Source: Microcystis aeruginosa NIES-843 (GTDB taxonomy: Bacteria; Cyanobacteriota; Cyanobacteriia; Cyanobacteriales; Microcystaceae). From it: a DNA stretch of 32,000 nt. Both the position numbers and the translations under genes were made by a program. The notes beneath the pieces are model-generated. The model saw only the letters and a list, made by a program, of their open reading frames with translations, was not told the DNA's origin and made no database searches. The DNA lies in the NCBI RefSeq assembly GCF_000010625.1, contig NC_010296.1, positions 2,670,001 through 2,702,000 on the forward strand, given 5' to 3'. Shown piece by piece: positions 1,209-29,100 of the stretch. How positions within the stretch are numbered: position 1 is the stretch's first letter; every line of letters begins with the position of its first letter.

Positions 1209-1538
1209 TTATTGCACTGCTAGAACAGAAATATGTCCGACCTCTTTTGTATCGCTACGAGGCCGGATGACGATCTCTACGTCTTGATTCAATGCCGTGA
1301 GAAATTCCATCAATCGTTCAACTGAAAATTGATCGAGCCGATAGTTTTTTAGTGCTGAAACCTTGGGCTGCGGGATATTAAGCAGTATGGCAATCTCCCT
1401 CTGTTTCAGCTTGCGACTTTTCAGAAGTTCGTTAACGGCCAGGGCTAGGCGTGTTTTCGTTTGCCGTTCGGTTGCGTCTGGATAACCAAGGTCAGCGAAA
1501 ACGTTTGTGGTGCCACGAGTAATTTCCAAATAGCTCAT
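1209..1538 (-). CDS. higA: HigA-like XRE-family HTH antitoxin
   Basis: 109 aa with an HTH segment (KLKQREIAILLNIPQPKVSALKN). There is a 4-nt ATGA overlap with the upstream toxin gene. Confidence 0.8.
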   Translation of the reverse strand: MSYLEITRGTTNVFADLGYPDATERQTKTRLALAVNELLKSRKLKQREIAILLNIPQPKVSALKNYRLDQFSVERLMEFLTALNQDVEIVIRPRSDTKEVGHISVLAVQ

Positions 1539-1894
1539 TTTGTCCCTCTACTTTCATAATCCGCTTGTGCGCGTTTCATCCGTTCAACAATAAGCTTTAC
1601 ATCCTCTTGAGGTGTCTTGATTCCAGACTTCGACTTTTTCTGGAATGCGTGCAGAACGTAAACAACTTCAGCGAAGCGCACAGTATAGACCGCTCGATAA
1701 GTGTCGCCTCGATGATCTTCGACGATCTCAAATACTCCTGCCCCTTCACCCTTCCAAGGTTTAGCCTTTGGATGTTTACCCCCCAACTGCGCTAGACCAA
1801 GGGCATAGCCCATATCGTCCTGCACCTCGGCAGGGAAAGTCAGGTAGTCCTTTTTCGCAGAGGCCACCCAATACAAGGGTTTTTCCCGCGACAT
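1535..1894 (-). CDS. higB: HigB/RelE-superfamily toxin (phage Gp49-like, DUF891-type)
   Basis: 119 aa (KPLYWVASAKKDYLTFPAEVQ...YRAVYTVRFAEVVYVLHAFQKKS), typical of the Gp49-like toxin family. It is translationally coupled to higA. Confidence 0.8.
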   Translation of the reverse strand: MSREKPLYWVASAKKDYLTFPAEVQDDMGYALGLAQLGGKHPKAKPWKGEGAGVFEIVEDHRGDTYRAVYTVRFAEVVYVLHAFQKKSKSGIKTPQEDVKLIVERMKRAQADYESRGTK

Positions 1895-3198: not shown

Positions 3199-5281
3199 GT
3201 ACCCCACATTCCGCACCCTAAGTGTCACAACGTCTCAAAAGAGGAAGGGGCGCGAGTCAAAATACTTATCTAGAGGAGTGAGTTGGCGGCAAGCTGCCGG
3301 CAACTAAGCCGAAAATTTCAGAGTTCCCCCGGTCATTCTCAATAAACAGTGCTTGTTGAGAATGACTAGGCAATCAGACTTAACATCTAGGGGGAGATGT
3401 TCCAGTTGCTCGCTTTGTTTTGTCACCCCTTGAAGTCAATCCATCTGGTCAAGATAAGAGATAATATTCCTGGCAAGGTTTGGGAAAAAATCTCAAAATG
3501 TTGCGCCTCTCATCCGTTAAGTTGCTAATCTTTTGATTGTCTTGAATACGGACGAGATGAATCCCTTGAAAGCACTGAAATATCCAGCGTAACGTCGGTC
3601 GGTCAGTTAACTTACCCAACGGATTTTTCAGTCCCGTCTCCTGCTGTTTTAAACTTAAACGAAGTTGTCTTTGACCAATAGTATAAACCAGCAGGCACAA
3701 GCCCATGAGCATGGCCATGACCTCGATTCTATGGGGAGATTTGAGAAAGACACTGTGGGCAAAAAAGCAGGGGTCTTTGAGAAAAGAAAATCCTCTTTCC
3801 GGAGCTTGTTGCCCTTTATATTTTTTGAGTATATCCTCACTGCTTAATCGTTGTTTCTCCAAATCGTTAGTTGCTAAAACGAATCGTCCTGCTCGTTTCT
3901 TTAGCCTCTCAATGGCGGTCAAATTCAACTCTAATTCGGCTTGACTTGATAGCTTTGAGAGGGTAAATCGTCTTTTGATTTGAGTTTTGACCCCTGGGAC
4001 TCAGGCGGAATGAGATTGACTTTAATCTCCGTTAACTGATGAGATTTTAAGGAGTCAGATAATCCTTTGGCTATCGCCAACGCCACCGCTCTATTCTCAA
4101 ATTCTCTTCGGGATAGTTGCCGGATTTTTTCTTGGGCAGAATTCTTTTCCTGCTCGATTTTTTTCTCTAATTTTTTCAAGTCTGATTCTTGTCTAGCTTG
4201 ACTTTCAACTAGCAACCATCTTTGTTCTATCCCCCCATAGTTAGAGATGGTTTCCCGCCAGGAATAACCCGGTATTTCTGAATCGGTTAACTCTTTTTCT
4301 GAGATGCTATCAACCAACTCTTGAGCCTCTTTAATGCTTAATGGTACTCGAGACAACCAACGCATTTCTTTCATTAGTTTTAAATTCTCTTTGCTATAGA
4401 GGGCGCTATCGCCGACTATTAAACTGTCAAAGTCAACTTGTTTTTTAAATTCTCGGGCGATTTGACCAAAAACCGCTTTGTCCGCTTCATTTCCGTCCCC
4501 TACTTTCAGGAATAAAGGTACATCTCCATCCCCACTTACGATTAAGTCAATCATAAATTGTTTTAAGTCAGGTCTTCGGTCGCGGGAGTATCCGTAGGTA
4601 ATTTTTATTGGCTGTTGTCTGGTTTCAATTTCTTCTCCCACTGCTCCTGATTTCAGGATTTCTACTGTTGGGTATTCCTTGTTATATTCTCCTTCTACTG
4701 ATAGAGAAGTCGAATCTAAATGGGAGTTCTCGGTTGCTACACCAAATTTTTTCACGGCCGCTAAACTAATCAGTAGGAAAATGACCGAAACATTAAGTTG
4801 ATAAAGTTTGTCCATTACTCGACCAATTTTATCATCATTCAGGTGTTTTGGTTCGATGCCCTCTCCCAGCAGATGTTCGGTTGCTTTATCTTCAAAAAAT
4901 TGAGGAAATAAATACAAGGCTCGGGAGACAAATCCCAATCCATTCAGGATAATTGCTTTCACGACTTGCCCAGCTGTGACAATTTCTCCTCGCTCAATTG
5001 AGACTTGTTCGTTGATAATTTCAACGATTCCTATTTCATCGATAATTCCGGCTACTAATCCCAGATGGTCTAGATTTTTGACTTCAATTTCTGTTGATTG
5101 ATTCATGGTCGAACAGTCCACTCGCCTCAGTTTTCCAACAATTCCTATTTTTTCATAATTAGGGGTCTCAAGACCCCCCTAGCGGCCACCGAGAAAACCT
5201 TCACCAGCTAGGTATTTTTACTCAAGTCTCTGGCGGGGGACAGCTTATGTGACAGTTGAGGGTGCGGAATGTGGGATGTAC
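3199..5281 (-). mobile_element. IS1634-family (IS4-like) insertion sequence
   Basis: Terminal inverted repeats: GTACCCCACATTCCGCACCCTAAGTGTCAC (3199-) versus the reverse complement of 5250-5281, GTACATCCCACATTCCGCACCCTCAACTGTCAC. I could not see a target duplication. Confidence 0.8.
3449..5121 (-). pseudogene. IS1634-family transposase split into two frames (396 aa + 159 aa)
   Basis: The N-terminus ...NLDHLGLVAGIIDEIGIVEIINE...AIILNGLGF is typical of the family. The frame changes at about 3928-3933 (TAG, then a TTG-started ORF in another frame). Confidence 0.8.
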
Positions 5282-5711: not shown

Positions 5712-6941
5712 AGCTAAAACGCACTTAAACCACCTAAAATAGAAATAGTAATTTTAGAAAAATCCTACTTATGCCAGCAAAAGATTTCCTAGACTTAGAA
5801 GAAAAGAAAAACTTACAAAAAGCTCTTAAAGAAGAAGAAAGAGCAGAGGTTAGGGAAAGAATTTTAATGTTTCTCTTGCTAAACGACGGAAAAACTCAAC
5901 GAGAAATAGCTGACTTTATTGGCTGTTCACTCAAAACGGTCGCCCCTTGGTGTGTTCACGGTGATCCTAACAATTTAGAAAGTCTAGAAGATGGGAGAAA
6001 AAATGGAAATCATAAAAAAGCCACAGAGGAATATATTAATTTACTATTAAAAATAGTTGATGAAGACCCGAAGGAATTTGGATATGAATTCGGGAGATGG
6101 ACAGCGGCAAGATTAGCAGAGCATCTAGAAAAGGAAACAAGAATTAAACTGAGTGGCTCGCAAGTGAGAAGAATATTGAGAAGAAAAAAGTATGTGTATA
6201 TCTGGGCGAAATATAGTCTAGAAGATAAGCAAGACAAGAAATTAAGAAAAGCATTTAAAGAAAAATTAGATGAATATTTAAGGTTGGCTAAAGAAAAGCC
6301 AGAGTCAATCCAGGTATGGTTTTGGGACGGGGCTTTCAAGGTGGCGACGCAGGTTCGCCACACAGCCCCTCATGAGTGTGGATTTAGTTTGAGAGTAATA
6401 AGAAGGAGAGCTTGGACAAAAAAAGGAAAGCGAAAAAAAGTGAATGGACAAAGAAAAAGAGGAAGGGTGAATGTGATGGGAGCCTTAAGATATAATGACA
6501 AAAAACGAGTCTGTTTTATGAGCAAAAAAGGAAATTCAGAAACTTTCCATGAACAATTAAAGAAACTTCATGAAGAGATTCGTCAAGAATGGATAAACTT
6601 GGGAAATCTGCCCGAAGATTTTCGAGAAAAAGGACCGAAAATTATCATCATATTAGACAATGCTAGTTATCACAAAAAGAAAGATGTTATTGAGCAGGTG
6701 GAAAAAGAGTTGCCCAATATTAGGCTAGAGTTTTTACCAGCTTATAGTCCAGATTACAACCTAATAGAATTAGTGTGGCATTCCGCTAAAGAGTACATAG
6801 CTAATCGAGAATTTGAAAATAAAGAAGAACTGGAAAAAGTAGTCAATCAGCTTTTAAATGAAGGGGGATTGATTATTAAATGGAGTAGAAAACTTAAAAA
6901 TAAGGGTAATGCTGTCAATGTAACTTAAATGCGTAAAAGCT
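5712..6941 (+). mobile_element. IS630-family insertion sequence with TA duplication
   Basis: TIRs are AGCTAAAACGCACTTAA (5712-) and TTAAATGCGTAAAAGCT (-6941), flanked by TA at 5710-5711 and 6942-6943. Confidence 0.8.
5771..6928 (+). CDS. IS630-family (Tc1/mariner-like) DDE transposase
   Basis: 385 aa with an N-terminal HTH, ...ECGFSLRVIRRRAWTKKG..., ILDNASYHKK and LPAYSPDYNLIELVW motifs. It contains an anomalous 45-nt insert (see findings). Confidence 0.85.
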   Translation: MPAKDFLDLEEKKNLQKALKEEERAEVRERILMFLLLNDGKTQREIADFIGCSLKTVAPWCVHGDPNNLESLEDGRKNGNHKKATEEYINLLLKIVDEDPKEFGYEFGRWTAARLAEHLEKETRIKLSGSQVRRILRRKKYVYIWAKYSLEDKQDKKLRKAFKEKLDEYLRLAKEKPESIQVWFWDGAFKVATQVRHTAPHECGFSLRVIRRRAWTKKGKRKKVNGQRKRGRVNVMGALRYNDKKRVCFMSKKGNSETFHEQLKKLHEEIRQEWINLGNLPEDFREKGPKIIIILDNASYHKKKDVIEQVEKELPNIRLEFLPAYSPDYNLIELVWHSAKEYIANREFENKEELEKVVNQLLNEGGLIIKWSRKLKNKGNAVNVT

Positions 6942-8663: not shown

Positions 8664-10026
8664 TGGGACTTAAACGCCAAATAAAGATCAAATCGAGTAT
8701 AATCGTTAAAGAGTAAGCACTTTACGTTGAAAGATCAGCGATGAAAGAGACAACCCCAGCCGCGATGCCCCCATGCTTTGACCGATGGTGTCGGCGGTTT
8801 GACAATTGCTTCAAAAACGAAGCGCAAAAAAACGGCTTCAGACAATATTTAGGAGGATTATTAGGGGAAAGTGAGAGGAAAAACCTCACTCAAATTGCCA
8901 ATAATGCCGTCGGAGTAGTTTATAACCGATTACATCACTTTTTGACCGAATCTCCCTGGTCAGACCGTCAGGTGAATGAATGTCGGTTGCAAGTGATGAA
9001 CCAATGCCGCCAGACGCAAATCCCCCGAGGATTTTCCCTGATTGTCGATGACTCAGGACATCGAAAAAGTGGCAATCTGACCGCCGGAGTTGGCAGGCAG
9101 TACCTAGGAGAAATTGGCAAGACAGACAACGGAATAGTCGCCGTCACTACCCATCTCTACGACGGCAAAAAAAGTGTCCCCCTAGACATTGAAATTTATC
9201 AACCGGCTAGTTCCTTAGCCGAGGGGAAAGAAGACAAAGAATTTAAGAAGAAACCAGAGATAGCGATAGATTTAATTGACCGGAGCTTAACCAGAGGCTA
9301 TCGACCGAAAATCGTCTTAATAGATGCTGGTTATGGCAACAACACAAATTTTCTCAAAGCCCTGGAAGAAAGAAAGCTAAAATACTTAGGAGGATTGGCA
9401 AAAAATCGAAAAGTAATTATTGAAAAAGAAGGGGGTGTGGAAGAAACAATCCAGCTTGAGCAACTAGCAAAAAGCCTATCAGAAAAGGATTGGGAGAAAA
9501 TCACCCTAAATCTAGATAAAGAAAAAACGGTTTGGGTAGCGGTATTCAGAGCGAAAATATCTCAACTAGAAGGAGAAAGGAACTTGGCGATCGTCATGAA
9601 TGCAAGTTCAATGGAAAAAGCCACAGAGGTGGACTATTTCATCACCAATGTAGTTGAGGCAGATACAGTAACAGCTTCGTGGATAGTGAGGACTTACACC
9701 GAAAGAAATTGGGTGGAAGTATTCTACCGAGAAGCCAAAGGATGGTTAGGGTTAAGGGAATATCAAGTCAGGGATAAACGAAGCTTACTTCGTCATTTTA
9801 TCCTGGTGTTTTGTGCCTATACATTTATCCTGTGGCATAAGTTAACTGGGGGATTGCAAAGGCAGTGGGCGAATCGACCTTTAAACACTTTTGTGGAAGC
9901 CTTGGAAGCTTTTCGGACAGCGATGTCTTTCCGTTTCTTTGAGTGGCTGACCGAGAATCGGGATGTGTTTGCCGCTTACAAAGCCAGTTTAGGCTTTGTT
10001 TGGGCTTGAAATTTGTTTAAGTCCCA
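8664..10026 (+). mobile_element. IS701-family insertion sequence with 4-bp TTAG duplication
   Basis: TIRs are TGGGACTTAAACGCCAAAT (8664-) and the reverse complement of 10008-10026, TGGGACTTAAACAAATTTC. TTAG occurs at 8660-8663 and 10027-10030. Confidence 0.8.
8741..10009 (+). CDS. IS701-family DDE transposase
   Basis: 422 aa with LIVDDSGHRKSGNLTAGVGRQYLGEIGKTDNG and ...TERNWVEVFYREAKGWLGL motifs. Confidence 0.85.
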   Translation: MKETTPAAMPPCFDRWCRRFDNCFKNEAQKNGFRQYLGGLLGESERKNLTQIANNAVGVVYNRLHHFLTESPWSDRQVNECRLQVMNQCRQTQIPRGFSLIVDDSGHRKSGNLTAGVGRQYLGEIGKTDNGIVAVTTHLYDGKKSVPLDIEIYQPASSLAEGKEDKEFKKKPEIAIDLIDRSLTRGYRPKIVLIDAGYGNNTNFLKALEERKLKYLGGLAKNRKVIIEKEGGVEETIQLEQLAKSLSEKDWEKITLNLDKEKTVWVAVFRAKISQLEGERNLAIVMNASSMEKATEVDYFITNVVEADTVTASWIVRTYTERNWVEVFYREAKGWLGLREYQVRDKRSLLRHFILVFCAYTFILWHKLTGGLQRQWANRPLNTFVEALEAFRTAMSFRFFEWLTENRDVFAAYKASLGFVWA

Positions 10027-11041: not shown

Positions 11042-11371
11042 TTACTGCACTGCTAGAACAGAAATATGTCCGACCTCTTTTGTATCGCTGCGAGGCCGGA
11101 TGACGATCTCTACGTCTTGATTCAATGCCGTGAGAAATTCCATCAATCGTTCAACTGAAAATTGATCGAGCCGATAGTTTTTTAGTGCTGAAACCTTGGG
11201 CTGCGGGATATTAAGCAGTATGGCAATCTCCCTCTGTTTCAGCTTGCGACTTTTCAGAAGTTCGTTAACGGCCAGGGCTAGGCGTGTTTTCGTTTGCCGT
11301 TCGGTTGCGTCTGGATAACCAAGGTCAGCGAAAACGTTCGTGGTGCCGCGAGTGATTTCCAAATTGCTCAT
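11042..11371 (-). CDS. higA: HigA-like antitoxin, second (orphan) copy
   Basis: It differs from 1209-1538 at 6 nt, of which 5 are synonymous (the only amino-acid change is Y3N). Only the last ~20 nt of higB are retained upstream. Confidence 0.75.
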   Translation of the reverse strand: MSNLEITRGTTNVFADLGYPDATERQTKTRLALAVNELLKSRKLKQREIAILLNIPQPKVSALKNYRLDQFSVERLMEFLTALNQDVEIVIRPRSDTKEVGHISVLAVQ

Positions 11372-11390: not shown

Positions 11391-12712
11391 CGAAAATTTG
11401 GGTCTGAAACCCCGTCGTTCTACGACGGCTTTACCGTTAAATATTAGCGCATTTACACGATATATGCTAGAATGCGAGATATGGAAAAAGCCTATTCTTA
11501 CCGATTTTACCCCACACCAGAACAAGAGTCGCTATTGCGGCGCACTTTGGGCTGTGTAAGATTGGTTTACAATAAGGCACTCCATCTCAGAACACAAGCT
11601 TGGTATGAAAGACAAGAAAGAGTAGGATATACTGAAACTTCTTCAATGTTGACCGAGTGGAAAAAGCAAGAAGAATTAGACTTTCTCAATGAAGTAAGCT
11701 GTGTACCTTTACAACAAGGCTTAAGACATTTACAAACAGCTTTTACTAATTTCTTTGCTGGTCGTACTAAGTATCCTAACTTTAAGAAAAAACATCAGGG
11801 AGGAAGTGCCGAATTTACCAAATCTGCTTTTAAATTTAAAGACAAACAAATCTATTTAGCTAAATGCACAGAACCTTTACCTATTCGGTGGTCAAGACAA
11901 ATACCAGACGGATGTGAACCAAGCACAGTAACAGTCAGATTACATCCTTCTGGACGTTGGCATATTTCAATTAGATTTGATGACCCAACGATTAAGCCTC
12001 TACCAGTAACAGATAAAGCCATCGGAATTGACTTAGGAATTAGTAGCCTCGTGATTACCAGCGATGGCGATAAAGTATCTAATCCCAAGCATTTTAAAAA
12101 GCATTATCGGAGACTGCGAAGAGCATCTAAAAGTCTTTCTCGAAAACAGAAAGGCTCAAAGAATCGGGAAAAGGCAAAAATCAAAGTAGCCAGAATTCAC
12201 GCTCAAATCACCGATAGTAGAAAAGACCATTTACATAAGCTAACCACTCAATTAGTTCGTGAAAACCAAACGATTGTGGTTGAGAATTTAGCCGTCAAGA
12301 ATATGGTCAAAAACCCGAAATTATCTCAGGCAATATCTGATGTAAGCTGGGGAGAAATAACCCGACAATTAGCCTATAAATGCCGTTGGTATGGGAGAAA
12401 CTACATCGAAATAGATAGATGGTTTCCTAGCTCTAAAAGGTGTAGTAATTGCGGGTATATTGCCCTTGAAAATGCCGTTAAATGTTCGAGAGTGGGATTG
12501 TCCAGACTGTGGGACGCACCATGACCGAGATATTAACGCCAGTAAAAATATTTTGGCCGCAGGGCTTGCGGTGTCAGTCTGTAGAGCGACCATAAGACCA
12601 GAACAGAGTAAATCTGGGGCGGCAGGTGCGAAAAATCCTTCGGGAAAGAAGCAGAAACCCAAATCGTGAGGTTTGGGAATCGCCGTCCGTTTTACGGCGG
12701 CGAGGATGTCAA
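11391..12712 (+). mobile_element. IS200/IS605-family element, TnpB-only (copy 1)
   Basis: The left end CGAAAATTTGGGTCTGAAACCCCGTCGTTCTACGACGGCTTTAC lies directly after TTCAT. The right end is GGTTTGGGAATCGCCGTCCGTTTTACGGCGGCGAGGATGTCAA. There are no inverted repeats and no duplication, as expected for this family. Confidence 0.8.
11481..12669 (+). pseudogene. tnpB: TnpB (OrfB) RNA-guided nuclease gene with a +1 frame break in the zinc finger
   Basis: The sequence reads MEKAYSYRFYPTPEQ...GIDLG...VVENL...CSNCGYIA, then the frame shifts at about 12460-12466 to ...[28 protein letters not shown]. Confidence 0.8.
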
Positions 12713-15999: not shown

Positions 16000-17568
16000 T
16001 CAGTTCTGGTTGGGACGACCAGAAACTTCTAAGGGATCGTAGCCTAGTTGTTGAGTAATCCGTTCTCTGGCTAAGGCCCGGTACTCCCAAAAATGTTCTC
16101 CCGCCGCGCACAGACCTAAATACAGATTGAGAACTTGGGGCTTTTTTTGCCAAATCGTCCATAATTGCCGCCAAAACTGTCCCCGAATGTTCCCTCGGCG
16201 GATACCCTGATGCCAGATTAACTGGGTAATCAGCCGTAACCCCTTCCCCACGGGAAATTGCATGGTTTGCTTGTGTTTTGACTGCAAACCCAGACCGAGA
16301 CATTGTTGGAAACAGCGTCGGAGATAGTGGCTGGGTTCGTACAGCGTCCAGAAGCCTTCGACATACTCTCTGGCAATTTCGGCAATCGGGCGGGTGGGGA
16401 TAAAATTCATCAAGCTATTCTGATCTCCCGTCGGATGGATGCTGTCACCCTCAACTAAACGCTGTTCTTGCTGGAGACGATTCCAGAGCGCCGTGTTGGG
16501 CGGAGCCTGGAGGATGCCTAACATGGGCTGAGGAATACTGGTTTCTTCCACAAAGGCTTGAATCCTTTCCCCCGCACCAGAGCGCTCTCCATCAAACCCC
16601 AAGATAAATCCAGCATAGATTAGCAAACCGGCTGCATTAATCTTGCGACAGGCTTCCACCAGTGGATTGCGAGTATTTTGCAGTTTGCGCGTCACTTGCA
16701 GACTATCTTGGTCAGGAGTTTCAATCCCCAGAAAGACAGAATAAAACCCCGCCTCAGCCATCAGGTGCAGTAATTCATCATCCTCTGCCAAATTGACCGA
16801 GGCTTCAGTAATAAAGGTGAAGGGATAGTCGTGCTGCTTCATCCAGGGAATCAAGTCTCTGAGAAAGCGTTTGACGTTGCGCTGATTGCCAATAAAGTTG
16901 TCATCGACGATGAACAACGAACCGCGCCAGCCTAGGTCGTAGAGAGTCTGCAACTCTGCTAAAGTCTGACTCGGCTCTTTAGTACGAGGTTTGCGCCCGT
17001 AGAGGGAAATAATGTCGCAAAATTCGCAGTTAAAAGGACAGCCGCGAGAGAATTGCACTGCCATCATTAAGTAATCGTCTCGCTGAAGCAGGTCGAAGCG
17101 GGGGATGGGGCTGAGGGTCACGTCTGGCTTGTCCCCAGAGCGGAAAATTCCCTGGCTTTGACCTTGAGCGATCGCCTCTAAAAACAGGGGAACGGTTAAC
17201 TCTCCCTCATCCAAAATGAGATAGTTCGCTCCAGAATCCAGGGCATCCTGGGGGACAGAGGTGGGGTAGGGACCGCCAACGGCGACTTTTTTGCCTAACT
17301 GCACGGCTTTTTGAATCAGAGCTTGAAAATCTGGCTTCTGGACCAACATGGCAGAGAGGATAACCAACTCACACCACTCCCAATCGGCTTCTGTTTCAGG
17401 ATTGACGTTGCGATCGTAAAATCGAATTTCCCAGTTTTGGGGGAGGAGGGCGGCGACAGTAATGATGCCGAGGGGTGGAATGGTGGCTTTCAGTCCCGCG
17501 ATTTCCATAAAGCGATCGTAAGACCAGAAAGACTGGGGAAACTCAGGGTAGAGTAACAGGGCTTTCAT
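16000..17568 (-). CDS. B12-binding-domain radical SAM protein (DUF4070-type C-terminus)
   Basis: 522 aa. The N-terminus MKALLLYPEFPQSFWS...PPLGIITVAA is typical of the cobalamin-binding class. The CPFNCEFC cluster motif is at 17017-17040. Confidence 0.9.
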   Translation of the reverse strand: MKALLLYPEFPQSFWSYDRFMEIAGLKATIPPLGIITVAALLPQNWEIRFYDRNVNPETEADWEWCELVILSAMLVQKPDFQALIQKAVQLGKKVAVGGPYPTSVPQDALDSGANYLILDEGELTVPLFLEAIAQGQSQGIFRSGDKPDVTLSPIPRFDLLQRDDYLMMAVQFSRGCPFNCEFCDIISLYGRKPRTKEPSQTLAELQTLYDLGWRGSLFIVDDNFIGNQRNVKRFLRDLIPWMKQHDYPFTFITEASVNLAEDDELLHLMAEAGFYSVFLGIETPDQDSLQVTRKLQNTRNPLVEACRKINAAGLLIYAGFILGFDGERSGAGERIQAFVEETSIPQPMLGILQAPPNTALWNRLQQEQRLVEGDSIHPTGDQNSLMNFIPTRPIAEIAREYVEGFWTLYEPSHYLRRCFQQCLGLGLQSKHKQTMQFPVGKGLRLITQLIWHQGIRRGNIRGQFWRQLWTIWQKKPQVLNLYLGLCAAGEHFWEYRALARERITQQLGYDPLEVSGRPNQN

Positions 17569-17627
17569 CGAAAAACTGGGTCTGAAACCCCGCCCTTTAG
17601 CGATAGCGGAGGGCGGCTTTACATAAG

Positions 17628-19062
17628 TTAGTGAGAAACAATTAAACCGTTAGAACGACGAATTAACTGAATCTTACTAACAGTTATCTGTCCCAATCGT
17701 TGACCATTGGCATCGCTTACAGATAGCTGTTTTTCGGTATCTCCACTAACATAACCAATTCCTTTGGGAGAAGAAATTAAATCTCCTTTACGGAACCCAT
17801 GTCTTGTGGTAGAGCCACCACATTTACGTCGTTTACCACCTTACAACTATGTCTGCTTCTTCATTGGAGGGGAATATACCGATGATCGAGTGAATATTTG
17901 TCATGAATTTCCTGTTTTTAGTACATAATTAGATTATATCCAACATTCCGCAGGTCAGATTCCACTTCATAAATATCCCTCTTTGGGAGTATCTCATTTA
18001 TGCAAGTGAGTAATTAGGGTTTGCTGAAAAAGTTTTTCTTGGGGGCAGGGTGTGGCCCCCCCAACCCCCCCGACATCGGGGGGGCAGTTGGGGTGTAGGG
18101 TTTTACCGATTTTGAAGGCAGGGAAAAAGTCCCTGAATTTTCCCCCCGATCACTCCCATATCTGGTACTTTTTGATTTACAAAAACTCTAAAAGTCTTAA
18201 CCAACAAGGGTTTTACCATTATTCAGCCAGCCCTAATTATACTTGTCCCTAAAACTGGTTTCTAGCAAGGCTTTCAAAATAGCTTGACATAAAACCTGAT
18301 TTAGGGGTTACAAAGGTGAGATGCTCCCTCCCTCTTAGCAATGCCATCGTTAGCATGACTTTCTGGTGATTGTTTTGCTTTATTTTTGGATTTTTCTAGT
18401 CGCAAATATTTTCTGAGATTAGAGGTTTGCCAACCAAAGCGAGTATGGACTTTTGCCAATTGAGATAGTTGCTCAATCGCCCATTTCTGTCTGACCATAA
18501 CTGGCGAAAAACCTTTTCTAGACTTAGCTCCTTTTCTACTGGAAGTTAGATCAATATCGGTTTTGACATACTCAAAGTAAATGTCAGTAATTGGATAGAT
18601 TTTGGTTAGTTCAGAAACGTCTCGAAGTTCAAGTTGACGATTAGCTCTAATTGAGGGAGCTAATTTTCCTTGTCTTCTATTTGAAAATCGTTTTTGTCGA
18701 TGCGCTCTTAGATTAAAAGAAAGTTGGCGGTTAATCCGTCTTTTTCTACGTCCTCTTCGCATTAAGCAGCGATTGTCTAGGCACTCTCTTACTCGCTTAA
18801 AAGGAAGTTCTAAGTGAGCCTTCCAAAGAGTAAAAAGGGAGGATTGAACACCAATTCCAGAGAATAATTTACCCGGGTCAATGCCAATAGCAATTGGTTG
18901 GGTTTTGCTATCGGAAGGTTCAGTGGTTAGCTGGACATAGAAAATATCTAAGTCGTTGAATTTACCGATAGCTTTTCCTTCCTTAATCCACCGCCTGGCC
19001 CGACTGGGTTTGGTGGGCATTAACGGTTTTCCGTCTTTTGAGATAACAGGAACTCTTGCTAT
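17628..19062 (-). pseudogene. isrB: IsrB (HNH-less IscB-like RuvC nickase), disrupted
   Basis: N-terminal fragment (18301-19062): VPVISKDGKPLMPTKPSRARRWIKEGKA (PLMP domain), IGIDPG (RuvC-I), an RRGRRKRRINR...RFSNRR bridge helix, FEYVK (RuvC-II) and SHANDGIA (RuvC-III). There is no CxxC/HNH segment. C-terminal fragment (17628-17840): ...RHGFRKGDLISSPKGIGYVSG... (TID-like). The two fragments are separated by about 460 bp that includes a MITE. There is no canonical start codon; an ATA at 19062 lies 8 nt after AAGGA. Confidence 0.65.
18011..18240. mobile_element. MITE (TIR ..TTAGGGYTKGCTGAA), copy 1, inside isrB
   Basis: TAATTAGGGTTTGCTGAA (18011-18028) pairs with TTCAGCCAGCCCTAATTA (18222-18239). 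The interior has long G and C homopolymer runs. About 30 bp at each end are shared with 23571-23812 in inverted orientation. Confidence 0.55.
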
Positions 19063-19296
19063 GGAGATAATCCTTAAGAGTGAAGTTAATGTCCCTTACC
19101 GCAACACAATCAAGATGTCTTGTCTAACAACGCTTTACCAATAAAGCTTAGAGAGAATCCGAACTAGGGAAGCATTCGGAAGTCTGTGCCAGATTGTGTC
19201 TCGATGCGGTAGTCTCTACTTGCGTCGCCTAAATTGGTCTAGGCAAGCCCCGTCCCTTTTAGGGCGGGGTTAGTGACGAATCAAATTATCTCAAAC
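19063..19296 (-). ncRNA. Putative IsrB omega-RNA (guide from the RE flank, scaffold between RE and the isrB start)
   Basis: About 210 nt of non-coding sequence lie between the RE (19280) and the isrB N-terminus, on the isrB strand. It begins with the hairpin CCCCGCCCTAAAAGGGACGGGG. The position matches the established IscB/IsrB architecture. The boundaries are not determined. Confidence 0.35.
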
Positions 19297-19601
19297 CCAG
19301 TCAACGCTTCGACATTTTGTCGGAAAGCGATTAAGGCATGATTAGCTTGATACTCGACGAGACCAGAGAAGATCGCCTCCGAGACTTCCTGCGAGACAAC
19401 GGTTTTGATCTCAATATTGGTGTTATAACCGACCATATCTCCCTGGCGGTTGCCGTGGCGACCTGCGCCCTGGGCTTGCGAGAGGGTATAGCCAGTTACG
19501 CCTAACTCTTGCAGCAGCTTGATCATGCGGTCTTGCAAGACGGTTTCACCAATGATGACAACCAGTACAGCCGGTTTAATGGGTAGGGATGAGGATGACA
19601 T
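19281..19601 (-). CDS. P-II-like (GlnB-superfamily) small signalling protein
   Basis: ATG at 19601, 6 nt after AGGAG. About 106 aa with the pattern ...VVIIGETVLQDRMIKLLQELGVTGYTLSQAQG.GRHG...IEIKTVV... Confidence 0.7.
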   Translation of the reverse strand: MSSSSLPIKPAVLVVIIGETVLQDRMIKLLQELGVTGYTLSQAQGAGRHGNRQGDMVGYNTNIEIKTVVSQEVSEAIFSGLVEYQANHALIAFRQNVEALTGFEII

Positions 19602-19639
19602 GGGCAACTCCTAAAATGGGTTTTTCAAAGACAATACTA

Positions 19640-19972
19640 TTGACATCCTCACCACGCCACTTTTTTTGGATGGTCGCGTCAATGGGGTTGACGCAGATAG
19701 CGAAAAACGCTTAATTGCTTAAGTCTGACACTTTCGACCCGTCCGTTTTCAGTGTCCGAATGCCGGACGGCCACTTTGAACAAGTCGAAAAAATCTCATG
19801 TTCAACCTTATTTCCTAGAAAGTTTTACTCGTTCAAGGCCGAATTTGACTTCTTTTCTGAACGAAACCCCCTACTATCTGTGGTCAGGGTTCAGTTTTTA
19901 GCTTGGTTATCGCTTTTTCCATTGTAGCTTAAAGCCGTCCTCAAAGGACGGGGTTTTCAACCCAAATTTTCG
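19640..19972 (-). mobile_element. Cargo-less IS200/IS605 derivative (PATE-like), 333 bp
   Basis: On the minus strand it starts with the LE-type CGAAAATTTGGGTTGAAAACCCCGTCCTTTGAGGACGGCTTTAAG, directly after ATTAT. It ends with the RE-type GGCGTGGTGAGGATGTCAA. There is no ORF inside. Confidence 0.6.
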
Positions 19973-23570: not shown

Positions 23571-23812
23571 TAAATAGGGCTTGCTGAATAATGGTAAAAC
23601 CCTTTTAAAATAAGGCTTTTGACCTGTTAAAATCCGATGTTCATGCTGCGAAAATAGGATTGGGACATTCAAAAACCTTGCATTATCCTTCTTGTAGTAC
23701 ATAAACCGGTACAAAAAAAAGAGGGCAACAAAGCCTGAAACGACCGGCTACTGACGACCGACGACCGACTCCTAACCCCACCAACAAACTTTTTCAGCAA
23801 ACCCTAAATAAG
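23571..23812. mobile_element. MITE (TIR ..TAGGGYTTGCTGAA), copy 2, adjacent to the truncated ISAs1
   Basis: TAAATAGGGCTTGCTGAATAATGGTAAAACCC (23571-) pairs with TTTTTCAGCAAACCCTAAATA (-23812). The ends match copy 1 in inverted orientation, but the interior is different. Confidence 0.5.
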
Positions 23813-25094: not shown

Positions 25095-26416
25095 CGGAAA
25101 TTTTGGGTCTGAAACCCCGCCGTTTTACGGCGGCTTTGCTGTTAAATACTAGCGCATTTACACGATATACGCTAAAATGTGAGACATGGAAAAAGCCTAT
25201 TCTTACCGATTTTACCCCACACCAACACAAGAGTCGCTATTGCGGCGCACATTGGGCTGTGTAAGATTAGTTTACAACAAAGCTCTCCACGAACGAACAC
25301 AAGCTTGGTATGAAAGACAAGAAAGAGTAGGCTACGCTCAAGCTTCTTCAATGCTAACCGAGTGGAAAAAACAAGAAGAATTAGACTTTCTCAACGAGGT
25401 AAGCTGTGTACCTTTACAACAAGGGTTAAGACATTTACAAACAGCTTTTACTAATTTCTTTGCTGGTCGGACTAAGTATCCTAACTTTAAGAAAAAACAT
25501 CAGGGAGGAAGTGCCGAATTTACCAAGTCTGCTTTTAAATTTAAAGACAAACAAATCTATTTAGCCAAATGCACAGAACCTTTACCTATTCGATGGTCAA
25601 GAAAAATACCAGAAAGCTGTGAACCAAGCACAGTAACAGTCAGATTACATCCCTCAGGACGTTGGCATATTTCAATTAGATTTGATGACCCAACGATTAA
25701 GCCATTACCAGTAACAGATAAAGCCATCGGAATTGACTTAGGAATTAGTAGCCTAGTAATTACCAGCAATGGCGATAAAGTATCTAATCCTAAGCACTTT
25801 AAAAAGCATTATCGGAGACTGCGAAAGGACCCAAAAAGTCTTTCTCGAAAACAGAAAGGCTCAAAAAATCGGGAAAAAGCGAGAATCAAAGTAGCCAAGA
25901 TTCACGCCCAAATTACTGATAACAGAAAAGACCATTTACACAAGCTAACCACTCAATTAGTCCGTGAAAACCAAACGATTGTGGTTGAGAACTTAGCCGT
26001 CAAGAATATGGTCAAAAACCCGAAATTATCTCAGGCAATATCTGACGTTAGTTGGGGAGAAATCACTCGACAATTAGCCTATAAATGCCGTTGGTATGGG
26101 AGAAACTACATCGAAATAGATAGATGGTTTCCTAGCTCTAAAAGGTGTAGTAATTGCGGGTATATTGCCCTTGAAAATGCCGTTAAATATTCGACAGTGG
26201 GACTGTCCAATCTGTGGAACACACCATGACCGAGATATTAACGCTAGTAAAAATATTTTGGCCGCAGGGCTTGCGGTGTCAGTCTGTAGAGCGACCATAA
26301 GACCAGAACAGAGTAAATCTGTTAAGGCAGGTGCGAAAAATCCTTCGGGAAAGAAGCAGAAACCCAAATCGTGAGGTTTGGGAATCACCGTCCGTTTACG
26401 GCGGTGAGGATGTCAA
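25095..26416 (+). mobile_element. IS200/IS605-family element, TnpB-only (copy 2)
   Basis: The LE CGGAAATTTTGGGTCTGAAACCCCGCCGTTTTACGGCGGCTTTGC lies directly after ATCAT. The RE is ...GGGAATCACCGTCCGTTTACGGCGGTGAGGATGTCAA. Confidence 0.8.
25186..26374 (+). pseudogene. tnpB: TnpB gene, copy 2, with the same +1 frame break as copy 1
   Basis: A 347-aa ORF plus a 69-aa ORF. The break is at the same CCC run (26168-26170). There are many substitutions relative to copy 1. Confidence 0.8.
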
Positions 26417-27068: not shown

Positions 27069-28287
27069 AGAACTCTTGCAAATTAATTATATGTTGTAAT
27101 GATGGGTTAACTAATTTTCCCAAAAAAAATTAGTTAATCAGTACATTCGTCCTGAATGAAAACTTGAAGTTTAACTTTTAACTCAAAACTCTTTAGAGCT
27201 GCTTTAATTTGGTTATCAAAACCTCTTTATTTAAGCGGCACAAACTATCTCAATTTTTATAATTGAGAATAAATTCTCCTTGACTTGATTAATCTTTAGG
27301 CAACTTTTAAGAAGCTGCTATACCTATCCCTAACTCACAGTTATAAATAGCCGCCAACAAGTTAACTCTTAAACTATATCTTCGACGACGATTCCGATAT
27401 TTACAGGATAAGATTTTAAAGATTTTGAGTTTCCTATTTATAGGTTCAATGATAATTCTTTCTTTGGACAAAGCCTTGTTATACTCCTTTTCTAAGTCTG
27501 TTAATTTTCCATTTTTCGGTTTCTTTTTCGGTGTATAACTATTACTATGGTATGCAGCTATTCCCTGATAACCACTGTCTTCTATGCTGGTAGTTAAAGG
27601 ATGAAAACGAACTCGACTTTTTTTAAATAAACTAAAATCATGACCTCTGCCTTTCCCACAAAAGACACAGATAATTTCCTCGGTATTTTGATCAGCTACT
27701 AATTGGGATTTTAAAGTATGATAACCTCTTTTACCCCCCAAAAAATCTTTCTGTTTCTTTTTGGGGTGTTCAATGGGAGTTTCCGTTACATCCATTACCG
27801 TTACGACCGGTATCTCTGCTTGATTTAGTAGAGCTTTTTTTCCTTTTAAACGGAAGTTTCCCGATTGTAAAAGCATTTTTTCCGTCTTATTTACAATCCG
27901 ACATATAGTTGATTCTGATAGTTCCCAGCTTGTACCAATGTGAAAATATGTTCTATATTCTCGCCAATATTCTAACGTTACTAAAACTTGTTCTTCTATA
28001 GATAGTTTAGGTTTCGGTCCCCTTTTAGATGGTGAATTAGAGTCGGCTTCAACACTTTTTACTGATTCTACCATCTTTCTATAGGTTTGTTTATACACAC
28101 CGAAACGGCGTTTGAATTGTTCATCTGATCAGTTTTGATAATCCATAATTTTGCTAATAAACATAGCAAAATTATAGATGATTTCCTGACCTAAGATCAC
28201 ATTTTATTCTTTTTTCCACTTCAATCTAAGAATTGAGAAAAAAGCAAAACCTTATATTATACCATAAAAAAATTATGCAAGAGGTCT
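27069..28287 (-). mobile_element. IS5-family (ISL2-like) insertion sequence with AAT flanks
   Basis: TIRs are AGAACTCTTGCAAATT (27069-) and the reverse complement of the right end, AGACCTCTTGCATAAT. AAT occurs at 27066-27068 and 28288-28290. Confidence 0.7.
27307..28146 (-). pseudogene. IS5-family DDE (DDE_Tnp_4/Harbinger-like) transposase with early in-frame TGA
   Basis: The gene starts at ATG 28146 (MDYQN), has a TGA at 28129-28131, then continues SDEQFKRRFGVYKQTYRKMV... A GTG restart at 28098 would give 263 aa. Confidence 0.7.
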
Positions 28288-28290
28288 AAT

Positions 28291-29100
28291 AAGTTTATCC
28301 ACATCACGGATAAAACAGGGATAGGAAAATTAAAGCTAATCGGCACTTTTAACCGTCAACTCTTAGACAAAACCACAATCAAGAGAGTCAGGCTTATTAG
28401 ACGAGCAGATGGCTTTTATTGTCAATTTGTCTTAGACATTGAGAGAAAAGAACCACTTGACTCTACAGGAAAAGAAGTAGGGATTGATTTAGGCTTAAAC
28501 CATTTCTTGACTGACTCTAATGGGGATAAAATTGATAACCCACGGTTTCTTTGTAAGTCGGAAAAAAGACTAAAAAAGGCTCAACGTAAACTCTCAAAAA
28601 AGAAAAAGGGAAGCCAAAAAAGGTTAAAGCAGAAATCTAAAGTAGCTCGCCTTCATCTAAAAGTTTCTAGACAACGCCAAGATTTTGCCGTCAAGACAGC
28701 AAAAGCGTTAATCCAATCTAACGATTTGGTAGTCTATGAGGACTTGAAGGTATCTAATATGGTGAAAAATCCTAAGCTTGCTAAATCTATTTCAGATGCA
28801 AGTTGGTCAATGTTCACCGATTGGCTAGGCTACTTTGGAAAAATACACGGGAAGTTTGTGGTAGCGGTAAATCCACGATATACTAGCCAACAATGTTCTG
28901 ATTGTGGCAATATTGTCAAGAAAACATTATCTGTAAGAACTCATGTTTGTTCTTGTGGGTGTGTCTTGGACAGGGATGAAAACGCCGCTATAAACATTCT
29001 CAATAAAGCAAATACTGTCGGGCGGACAGAAATTCAAGCCCTCGGACAGACTACCCACTGTCTATTAGGTGAAAGCCTAATAAATAAGGTAACTGGATGA
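28291..29100 (+). pseudogene. tnpB: TnpB of a second subfamily, N-terminally truncated; RE hairpin to about 29137
   Basis: The frame is open from 28291. Motifs are GIDLGLNHF (RuvC-I), VVYEDLKVSNM (RuvC-II), CSDCGN...CSCGCVLDRDENAAINI (zinc finger plus RuvC-III). About 130 N-terminal residues and the LE are missing. The RE is GGGAATCCCTCGCTTTTAGCGATGGGAGCGTCAA. Confidence 0.75.

Follow-up and report, generated by a model that had tools for sequence, protein, structure and literature searches.

The IsrB protein and RNA classes were characterized between 2021 and 2023. The 32,000-nt stretch of Microcystis aeruginosa NIES-843 analyzed here (contig NC_010296.1, positions 2,670,001 to 2,702,000; referred to as the window) very probably contains a dead representative: positions 17569-19277 on the minus strand have the features of a relic of a non-autonomous transposon of the IS200/IS605 family, of the ISC1 (IsrB) type and the ISC1-1_MA family of M. 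aeruginosa. ISC1-1_MA, described from NIES-843, has termini of the form 5'-GT(CA)...CG-3' and the target N/ATGA (the slash marks the insertion point), both verified with empty sites (Kapitonov, Makarova & Koonin 2016, J Bacteriol, PMC4810608). The relic comes from the same genus, likewise has an HNH-less IscB1 (now IsrB) as its only gene, carries the same 5'-GTCA...CG-3' termini next to N/ATGA without duplication, and shares a terminus with the IS605B-1_MA-type tnpB elements, whose gene lies on the opposite strand. Unlike ISC1-1_MA, the window copy is a pseudogene with an ATA start, 53 replaced codons and nested miniature inverted-repeat transposable elements (MITEs); the two were likened via the published description.

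A characterized relative is DtIsrB of Desulfovirgula thermocuniculi (PDB 8DMB, PMC9581776), which nicks DNA at an NTGA target-adjacent motif (TAM) (Hirano 2022, PMC9581776). The domain order is the same, an intact relative of the window gene aligns with residues 2-361 of DtIsrB, and both systems have a large omega RNA with pseudoknots that is encoded upstream of the gene. RNA-guided nicking next to the TAM would be expected by analogy, and the flanking ATGA fits NTGA. The differences concern the scaffold, which is reported to comprise about 300 nt in DtIsrB but measures about 215 nt up to the start codon here, and the gene, since the window copy cannot make the protein.

A second point of comparison is the IscB element ISGst5 of Geobacillus stearothermophilus, in which the scaffold derives from the right end (RE) of the transposon, the guide lies just outside, transcription enters from outside, the TAM is TTCAT, and the donor joint is cleaved (Meers 2023, 10.1101/2023.03.14.532601). 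The window locus has the same layout of scaffold and guide, including a co-oriented upstream gene, would likewise depend on transcription from outside, and reads TTTCAT on the top strand of the transposon. In the ISGst5 system, a single TnpA serves TnpB and IscB elements with related ends. GstIscB, however, possesses an HNH domain and makes double-strand breaks, whereas IsrB only nicks. The family is active in Microcystis, because an IsrB element from this genus (the open reading frame [ORF] with 207 bp upstream and 59 bp downstream) is documented to have jumped into phage Mic1 at ATGA.

The features of the relic and of two related elements in the window are as follows.

17565-17568, minus strand: target and TAM ATGA (TCAT on the transposon top strand), whose ATG is the start codon of a B12-binding radical SAM gene (16000-17568)
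17569-17627, minus strand: left end (LE) of the transposon, with a subterminal hairpin (GCCGCCCT...AGGGCGGGG), the terminal sequence GGGTTTCAGACCC, a T-run and the end ...CG (PMC4810608)
17628-17842, minus strand: C-terminal 70 codons and TAA stop of the isrB pseudogene, a remnant of the TAM-interacting (TI) domain (GGKRRKCGG...LIVSH) that is out of frame with the N-terminal part
17843-18336, minus strand: foreign DNA replacing 157 bp of isrB, composed of a 277-bp filler and a nested 217-bp MITE
18017-18233 (18011-18239 with duplications), no strand assigned: the 217-bp MITE, with terminal inverted repeats GGGYTKGCTGAA and the 6-bp target site duplication TAATTA at 18234-18239 and 18011-18016
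18337-19062, minus strand: N-terminal 242 codons of the isrB pseudogene, with the PLMP domain, RuvC-I (IGIDPG), Arg-rich bridge helix, RuvC-II (FEYV) and RuvC-III (SHANDG)
19060-19062, minus strand: mutated start codon ATA, 8 nt past AAGGA; ATG in intact copies and in one orthologue (L063)
19063-19277, minus strand: omega RNA scaffold (HEARO-like) of 215 nt, which is also the transposon's right end, with the RE subterminal hairpin at 19248-19269
19278-19297, minus strand: flank that encodes the guide and lies outside the element, made up of the 20 nt directly preceding the RE and comprising the 3' end and TGA stop (19281-19283) of a P-II-like gene (Pfam P-II match)
11391-12712, plus strand: sister element 1 (IS605B-type), with a TCAT target, a near-identical LE, a related RE hairpin and a frameshifted tnpB
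25095-26416, plus strand: sister element 2 (IS605B-type), with the same ends and the same +1 frameshift in tnpB

Ends, target site and gene of the IsrB element

The family, ends, target, RNA fold and decay history of the relic are read directly from the sequence. When the window was aligned to the orthologous locus in strain MC19 (L004) and to an intact copy from an unrelated site (L001), the sequence in common ran from GTCAC to CAGTTTTTCG and was followed by ATGA in both. The right end lies at 19277, because the flanks of 11 Microcystis copies diverge right up to the G of GTCA, and this position agrees with the published terminus (PMC4810608); a preliminary description of the locus had placed it at 19280. 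The left end at 17569 proposed in the same description was borne out: at 33 of 33 distinct sites with a Microcystis-type LE (...CG or ...TG before ATGA), the sequence continues with ATGA and then diverges, which also defines 17565-17568 as the target. Both termini and the target are identical to those published for ISC1-1_MA (PMC4810608).

The element has no terminal inverted repeats but imperfect subterminal hairpins at both ends (19248-19269 and about 17590-17617), and it is flanked by TTC and ATGA without duplication. It was inserted into the 3-nt spacer between the stop codon of the P-II-like gene and the ATG of the radical SAM gene, both of which are co-oriented with isrB. The empty junction predicted for this locus is ...TTTGATTC/ATGAAAGCC...

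Also present in the window are two tnpB genes of full length, at 11481-12666 and 25186-26371 on the plus strand. The elements that carry them start with TTTCAT/CGAAAATTTGGGTCTGAAACCCCG and ATCAT/CGGAAATTTTGGGTCTGAAACCCCG, and their left ends are identical to that of the IsrB element at about 30 of 34 nt, including the TCAT target. The RE hairpin CCGTCC-TTTTA-GGCGG is likewise common to TnpB and IsrB elements, although the RE terminus itself differs (GATGTCAA in the TnpB elements, AGTGAC in the IsrB element). Despite these common ends, isrB lies on the strand opposite to tnpB, and the guide RNA of the TnpB elements is located at the 3' end. The shared ends and the RE-to-LE direction of isrB, with a 5' guide read from the RE flank, had already been recognized in the preliminary description, and both match published accounts (PMC4810608; 10.1101/2023.03.14.532601). 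ISC and IS605B elements share termini, with iscB and tnpB on opposite strands, in the pair ISC1-1_MA/IS605B-1_MA and in nine further families (PMC4810608). The element family, the ends shared with TnpB elements and the reversed gene orientation are therefore all previously published, and the finding itself matters little, as it concerns a dead copy of a family described in Microcystis in 2016.

Relative to an intact homologue of 395 aa (P0121), one and the same +1 frameshift affects both tnpB genes in the window, in the part that encodes the zinc finger (about codon 325-330); both elements have intact ends. Because the frameshift is the same, a protein-dead TnpB lineage must have been copied.

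The stop-free translation of 18337-19062 on the minus strand (IARVPVISKDGKPLMPT...SHANDGIA) matches the whole 174-position profile of Pfam RRXRR (PF14239) from the PLMP strand onward (residues 4-184; E 6.7e-51) and, partially, the NCBIfam model 'guided_IscB' (110 bits; cut-off 175). Of the solved structures, 8DMB (IsrB chain) matches best by far (E 1.8e-29); the alignment spans the PLMP strand (VPVISKDGKPLMPT aligned to VPVVGVDGRPLMPT), RuvC-I (IGIDPG in the window, LAVDPG in 8DMB), the Arg-rich helix, RuvC-II (FEYV and TEDV) and RuvC-III (SHANDG and THANDA), and the three acidic residues of the RuvC motifs (D62 of RuvC-I, E164 of RuvC-II, D239 of RuvC-III) are invariant in 20 relatives. The protein database contains more than 2,600 relatives, of which the close ones comprise 365 aa and stem from Microcystis and other cyanobacteria. 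One of these, from Microcystis wesenbergii (P0003), is 93% identical, aligns to residues 2-361 of 8DMB (E 1.2e-42, 149.5 bits), and has RRXRR without HNH as its entire Pfam content. The C-terminal piece (GGKRRKCGG...LIVSH; 17631-17842, in another frame) corresponds to the C-terminus of the intact relatives.

The interval between RuvC-II and RuvC-III, which is the site of the HNH domain in IscB, is uninterrupted in the window and comprises about 70 aa. Pfam scans of the window fragment and of the intact relative found no HNH domain. The PLMP domain, split RuvC motifs, bridge helix and TID-like C-terminus noticed earlier on the minus strand thus reflect homology (to RRXRR, 8DMB and the 365-aa relatives) rather than chance, and the HNH-less IsrB architecture assigned to them holds. 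A complete TI domain in an open frame is missing, however: a deletion has removed the 53 codons that connected RuvC-III with the TI domain, what is left of this domain lies in another frame, and ATA stands in place of the start codon. The window gene is a pseudogene of the IsrB family, not a working member, and this copy is unable to make IsrB.

Omega RNA, guide and proposed mechanism

The non-coding leader of about 210 nt that had been proposed to encode an omega RNA measures 215 nt (19063-19277) and matches the Rfam model HEARO (RF02033) over its full length, in the right place and orientation directly 5' of the ORF (E 2.5e-7 in an E-value scan). The score of 44.4 bits is below the gathering score of 83. 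Judging from this match, the leader is a homologue of HEARO whose score does not reach the curated range; the IsrB leaders of cyanobacteria are a diverged branch, with a poor fit to the Rfam model in helix 5 and in the 3' block.

Evidence for a conserved fold comes from an alignment of 57 leaders, taken from 80 collected among 310 related loci detected in cyanobacterial genomes. The RNAalifold consensus comprises 42 pairs in eight helices, with compensatory changes in 38 of the 42 pairs, which substantiates the structured and conserved RNA expected from the preliminary description. The proportion of paired cells is 95.5%, compared with 69% after shuffling and 30-49% with the partners slid, and the covariation score is 0.69 (controls at most 0.12). 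In addition, a loop-loop pseudoknot joins ACCAAT (19233-19238) and ATTGGT (19137-19142); it is paired in 87% of cases (68% shuffled, at most 55% slid) and includes 52 compensated cells, in keeping with the pseudoknotted omega RNA of DtIsrB. The scaffold of the window retains 41 of the 42 consensus pairs, as do intact copies, and, set against four intact Microcystis copies, the only change peculiar to it is G to A in the start codon.

Two same-sense copies of the motif GGATTMTCTC are present in the consensus of the leaders (columns about 139-152 and 240-252; window about 19158-19148 and 19077-19066). One copy lies within the scaffold and the other over the ribosome-binding region before the start codon; neither a pairing partner nor covariation was identified for them.

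The predicted 16-nt guide is TGAGATAATTTGATTC (19293-19278, minus strand) and includes the TGA stop of the P-II-like gene. Its location in the RE flank, read on the minus strand, is as originally proposed, but the coordinates were 3 nt off: because the right end is 19277, the guide runs from 19278 upward. In a scan of 17300-19900 for promoter and terminator consensus sequences, overall counts were at the level of chance, and no promoter-like site was present between the P-II-like gene and the scaffold. A tRNA scan found none.

The mechanism suggested by characterized relatives would begin with a Y1 transposase (TnpA) encoded elsewhere, which would recognize the subterminal hairpins, excise one strand by 'peel and paste' in trans, and reinsert it directly 5' of ATGA (3' of TCAT on the top strand) without target duplication. 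Transcription from the host side would then read the last 16-20 nt or so of the flank, the RE-derived omega scaffold and finally isrB; at the window locus, read-through from the co-oriented P-II-like gene would yield guide and scaffold. IsrB loaded with this RNA would nick guide-matched DNA followed by ATGA. Since such a sequence exists only at an emptied donor site, the element would be restored there, whereas the occupied site would be safe because the guide match is followed by GTCA instead of ATGA. The opposite strands of isrB and tnpB in elements with shared ends would follow from the origin of both guides in the RE flank, one at the 5' end of its RNA and the other at the 3' end. This copy landed in the spacer between the P-II-like and radical SAM genes, became fixed in a Microcystis lineage, and then underwent the change from ATG to ATA, the replacement of 53 codons and the nested MITE insertions.

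Several points weigh against the assignment and the mechanism attached to it. No Rfam match in the window, that of HEARO included, reaches the gathering threshold. A scan of 27 ORFs with a length of 100 aa or more (of 42 ORFs in the window) revealed neither a Y1_Tnp domain nor a tnpA gene. An empty allele of the site was not found, as the junction pattern had no match in the metagenome contigs, and the pattern of the P-II-like 3' end retrieved six contigs, of which five were occupied and one (L085) continued into unrelated sequence; the boundary was therefore placed here by comparison with other copies and with published work. Read-through of guide and scaffold would be expected here only by analogy with relatives, as would transposition, nicking and mobilization in trans, and it is an assumption that a nick, the only cut made by IsrB, would suffice for homing in this family.

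In the exceptional contig L085 (Ga0209450_10118720), the P-II-like gene is identical to that of the window as far as 19279; unrelated sequence (TTCATTTACG...) comes next, with neither the element nor the predicted junction to the radical SAM gene.

Decay of the element and its possible roles

The decay of the gene, including the reading of ATA as a mutated ATG, was correctly anticipated by the preliminary description: ATA is present in the window, MC19 and L009 and aligns with ATG in the paralogues and in the orthologue L063. The ORF had also been described as split by about 460 bp containing a MITE at 18011-18240. It is indeed interrupted and a MITE is present, but the MITE occupies 18017-18233, and 157 bp of the gene (53 codons, LACFQ...VFSK) have been lost after ...NDGIA and replaced by 277 bp of foreign DNA. 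This filler, which is present in all orthologous copies (L004, L063, L030, L086-L090) and absent from the paralogues, consists of 10 nt, a MITE of about 127 bp (terminal inverted repeats GAGCATCTCA) and about 140 nt of unassigned origin. The 217-bp MITE was inserted into the 127-bp MITE and is limited to the window lineage (also in L086 and L089). The 239-aa 'RRXRR' ORF is therefore a pseudogene fragment, and 17843-18336 is a nested MITE plus foreign DNA.

The 127-bp MITE, with the terminal inverted repeats GAGCATCTCA/TGAGATRCTC, extends over 17983-18326 of the window together with the 217-bp MITE nested in it, and a second copy of the 127-bp MITE is found in L086 (11202-11322). At 23577-23620, the window contains another, incomplete copy of the 217-bp MITE.

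MC19, M131 and a number of metagenome contigs carry the element at the same site, with extra insertions and deletions that differ by strain (near 19126, 18635, 18395-18327, 17915 and 17752); that near 19126 is an insertion of about 104 bp within the scaffold of the orthologues L009 and L090. Compared with the window, orthologues show 4-9 differences over the 215 nt of the scaffold, 17-42 over the 726 nt of the dead N-terminal ORF, and 0-3 per about 250 nt in the host flanks; LE and RE have 0-2 mismatches from intact copies and retain their hairpins. By all these signs, the element is an old, fixed and neutrally decaying relic.

A further observation concerns the uneven divergence of the orthologous copies (L004, L063, L086-L090): omega RNA and N-terminal ORF (18337-19277) differ by 2-6%, but host flanks, filler and LE half by 0-3%. 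As a guess, the excess in the 5' half of the element may be due to ectopic gene conversion from paralogues. Strain M015S2 holds two loci that represent the reciprocal crossover products between the relic and an intact IsrB copy. In one (L009), the P-II flank and the ATA start are followed by an intact center and a foreign 3' flank, which joins the P-II flank to a ParA-like gene; in the other (L030), a foreign 5' flank and an ATG start precede the filler and the flank with the radical SAM gene. IsrB copies therefore act as substrates for genome rearrangement.

It is unlikely that the element is still mobile as a passenger, moved through its intact ends by a TnpA acting in trans. The well-preserved ends and hairpins would permit it, and the frameshifted TnpB sister elements document that protein-dead copies can spread. 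Yet all copies bearing the filler (L004, L063, L030, L086-L090) adjoin the radical SAM gene, no second site with the decayed version was encountered, and the metagenome contigs contain no empty allele.

The suggestion of the preliminary description that the RNA part may outlive the protein would require that the omega RNA of this copy is kept by selection, either because it is loaded in trans by the IsrB of a paralogue or because it has another role as an RNA. The scaffold of the window is indeed intact, with 41 of 42 consensus pairs and no private change other than that in the start codon, and trans-loading is plausible given that Microcystis scaffolds are about 94-98% identical. Among orthologues, however, the scaffold is as diverged as the dead ORF (2-4% versus 2-6%) and more so than the host flanks, two loci (L009 and L090) are interrupted by the 104-bp insertion, and a guide target (guide match plus ATGA) does not exist as long as the element is in place. 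Selective retention is thus improbable and was rejected as unsupported.

A role for the host is equally improbable. The relic might have been retained as a leader that is transcribed and thereby connects the radical SAM gene with the promoter of the P-II-like gene upstream, as it lies exactly between the P-II stop (plus 3 nt) and the radical SAM ATG, with both genes and isrB co-oriented, in a locus that is conserved in many strains and whose radical SAM ORF is intact in all of them. Different strains nevertheless have unrelated insertions and deletions at numerous points of the interior, which favors neutrality over a sequence-specific role; moreover, the scan of 17300-19900 detected no promoter- or terminator-like signal beyond chance, and the fixation of a non-excisable relic requires no benefit.

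The idea that the protein is not IsrB but an IscB stripped of its HNH domain by internal deletion can be dismissed: the gene does have an internal deletion, but this lies downstream of RuvC-III, leaving the RuvC-II to RuvC-III interval of only about 70 aa intact, the 365-aa relatives without HNH align end to end with the IsrB chain 8DMB, and IscB chains match only the first 115 residues or so (the N-terminal third).

The locus offers a dated succession of stages of decay in the strains of Microcystis, as well as an example of genome rearrangement driven by recombination between element copies. For annotation, the pseudogene fragment, the omega RNA leader and the foreign region are now defined.

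Start codons at the target and other features of the window

At 27 of the 33 sites with a Microcystis-type LE, an ORF of 80 codons or more begins with the ATG of the ATGA target. Random ATGA in the same host flanks coincide with such starts in 22% of cases (p ~6e-13), and among other LE subfamilies the proportion is about 10 of 27 sites (LE flanks of L001 and L004-L083 surveyed). In 8 of 10 ORFs tested, a Pfam domain begins within the first 14 residues, which confirms genuine N-termini; examples include ThiD, DapB, galactokinase (GalK), a CobA-type methylase, inositol monophosphatase and a response regulator. The host gene at the target ATG encodes the radical SAM protein in the window and cyanophycin synthetase in M. 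wesenbergii (L001). On the RE side, a co-oriented ORF of at least 80 codons ends no more than 105 nt from the RE at 11 of 57 sites (no more than 6 nt at seven of these), and most of the remaining sites have no co-oriented ORF of this size ending within 250 nt upstream.

The TnpB elements with a TCAT target are not located at start codons (two in the window and L101; L091 is ambiguous), but these are far too few sites for a control, as homologue look-ups returned one locus from many samples and added two sites only.

A tentative reading, on balance still doubtful, is that the ATGA target of cyanobacterial ISC1/IsrB elements is, in most retained copies, the start codon of a genuine host gene in the same orientation. 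Insertion in front of it would avoid breaking a coding sequence, the host promoter would make the guide RNA, and the RE-to-LE direction of isrB would keep the host gene transcribed; guide and omega RNA would then lie in the 5' untranslated region of the host gene or in an operon junction. In TnpB elements with a TCAT target, reading proceeds away from that ATG, and a gene starting there would be silenced. If true, this would explain how an element whose guide lies outside secures its transcription, and why iscB or isrB and tnpB occupy opposite strands of elements with the same ends. The literature searched contains no statement on an association of HEARO, IsrB or IscB with start codons. The 2009 paper that first described HEARO is said to mention ATGA/GTGA insertion sites. 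The ATGA target is given by Kapitonov et al. (2016), who never use the words 'start codon' (PMC4810608).

Elsewhere in the window, a third, distant TnpB fragment is encoded at 28348-29100 (plus strand) by a 197-aa ORF with OrfB_IS605 and Cas12f1-like_TNB domains that is 39% identical to P0121. A Gp49/HTH_37 (HigB/HigA-like) pair is located at 1209-1894 (minus strand). A second HTH_37 gene with an identical Pfam score adjoins the LE of TnpB element 1 (11042-11371, minus strand), with no partner gene identified beside it. The window is also dense in DDE transposase genes (3931-5121, 5771-6928, 8741-10009 and 27307-28098).

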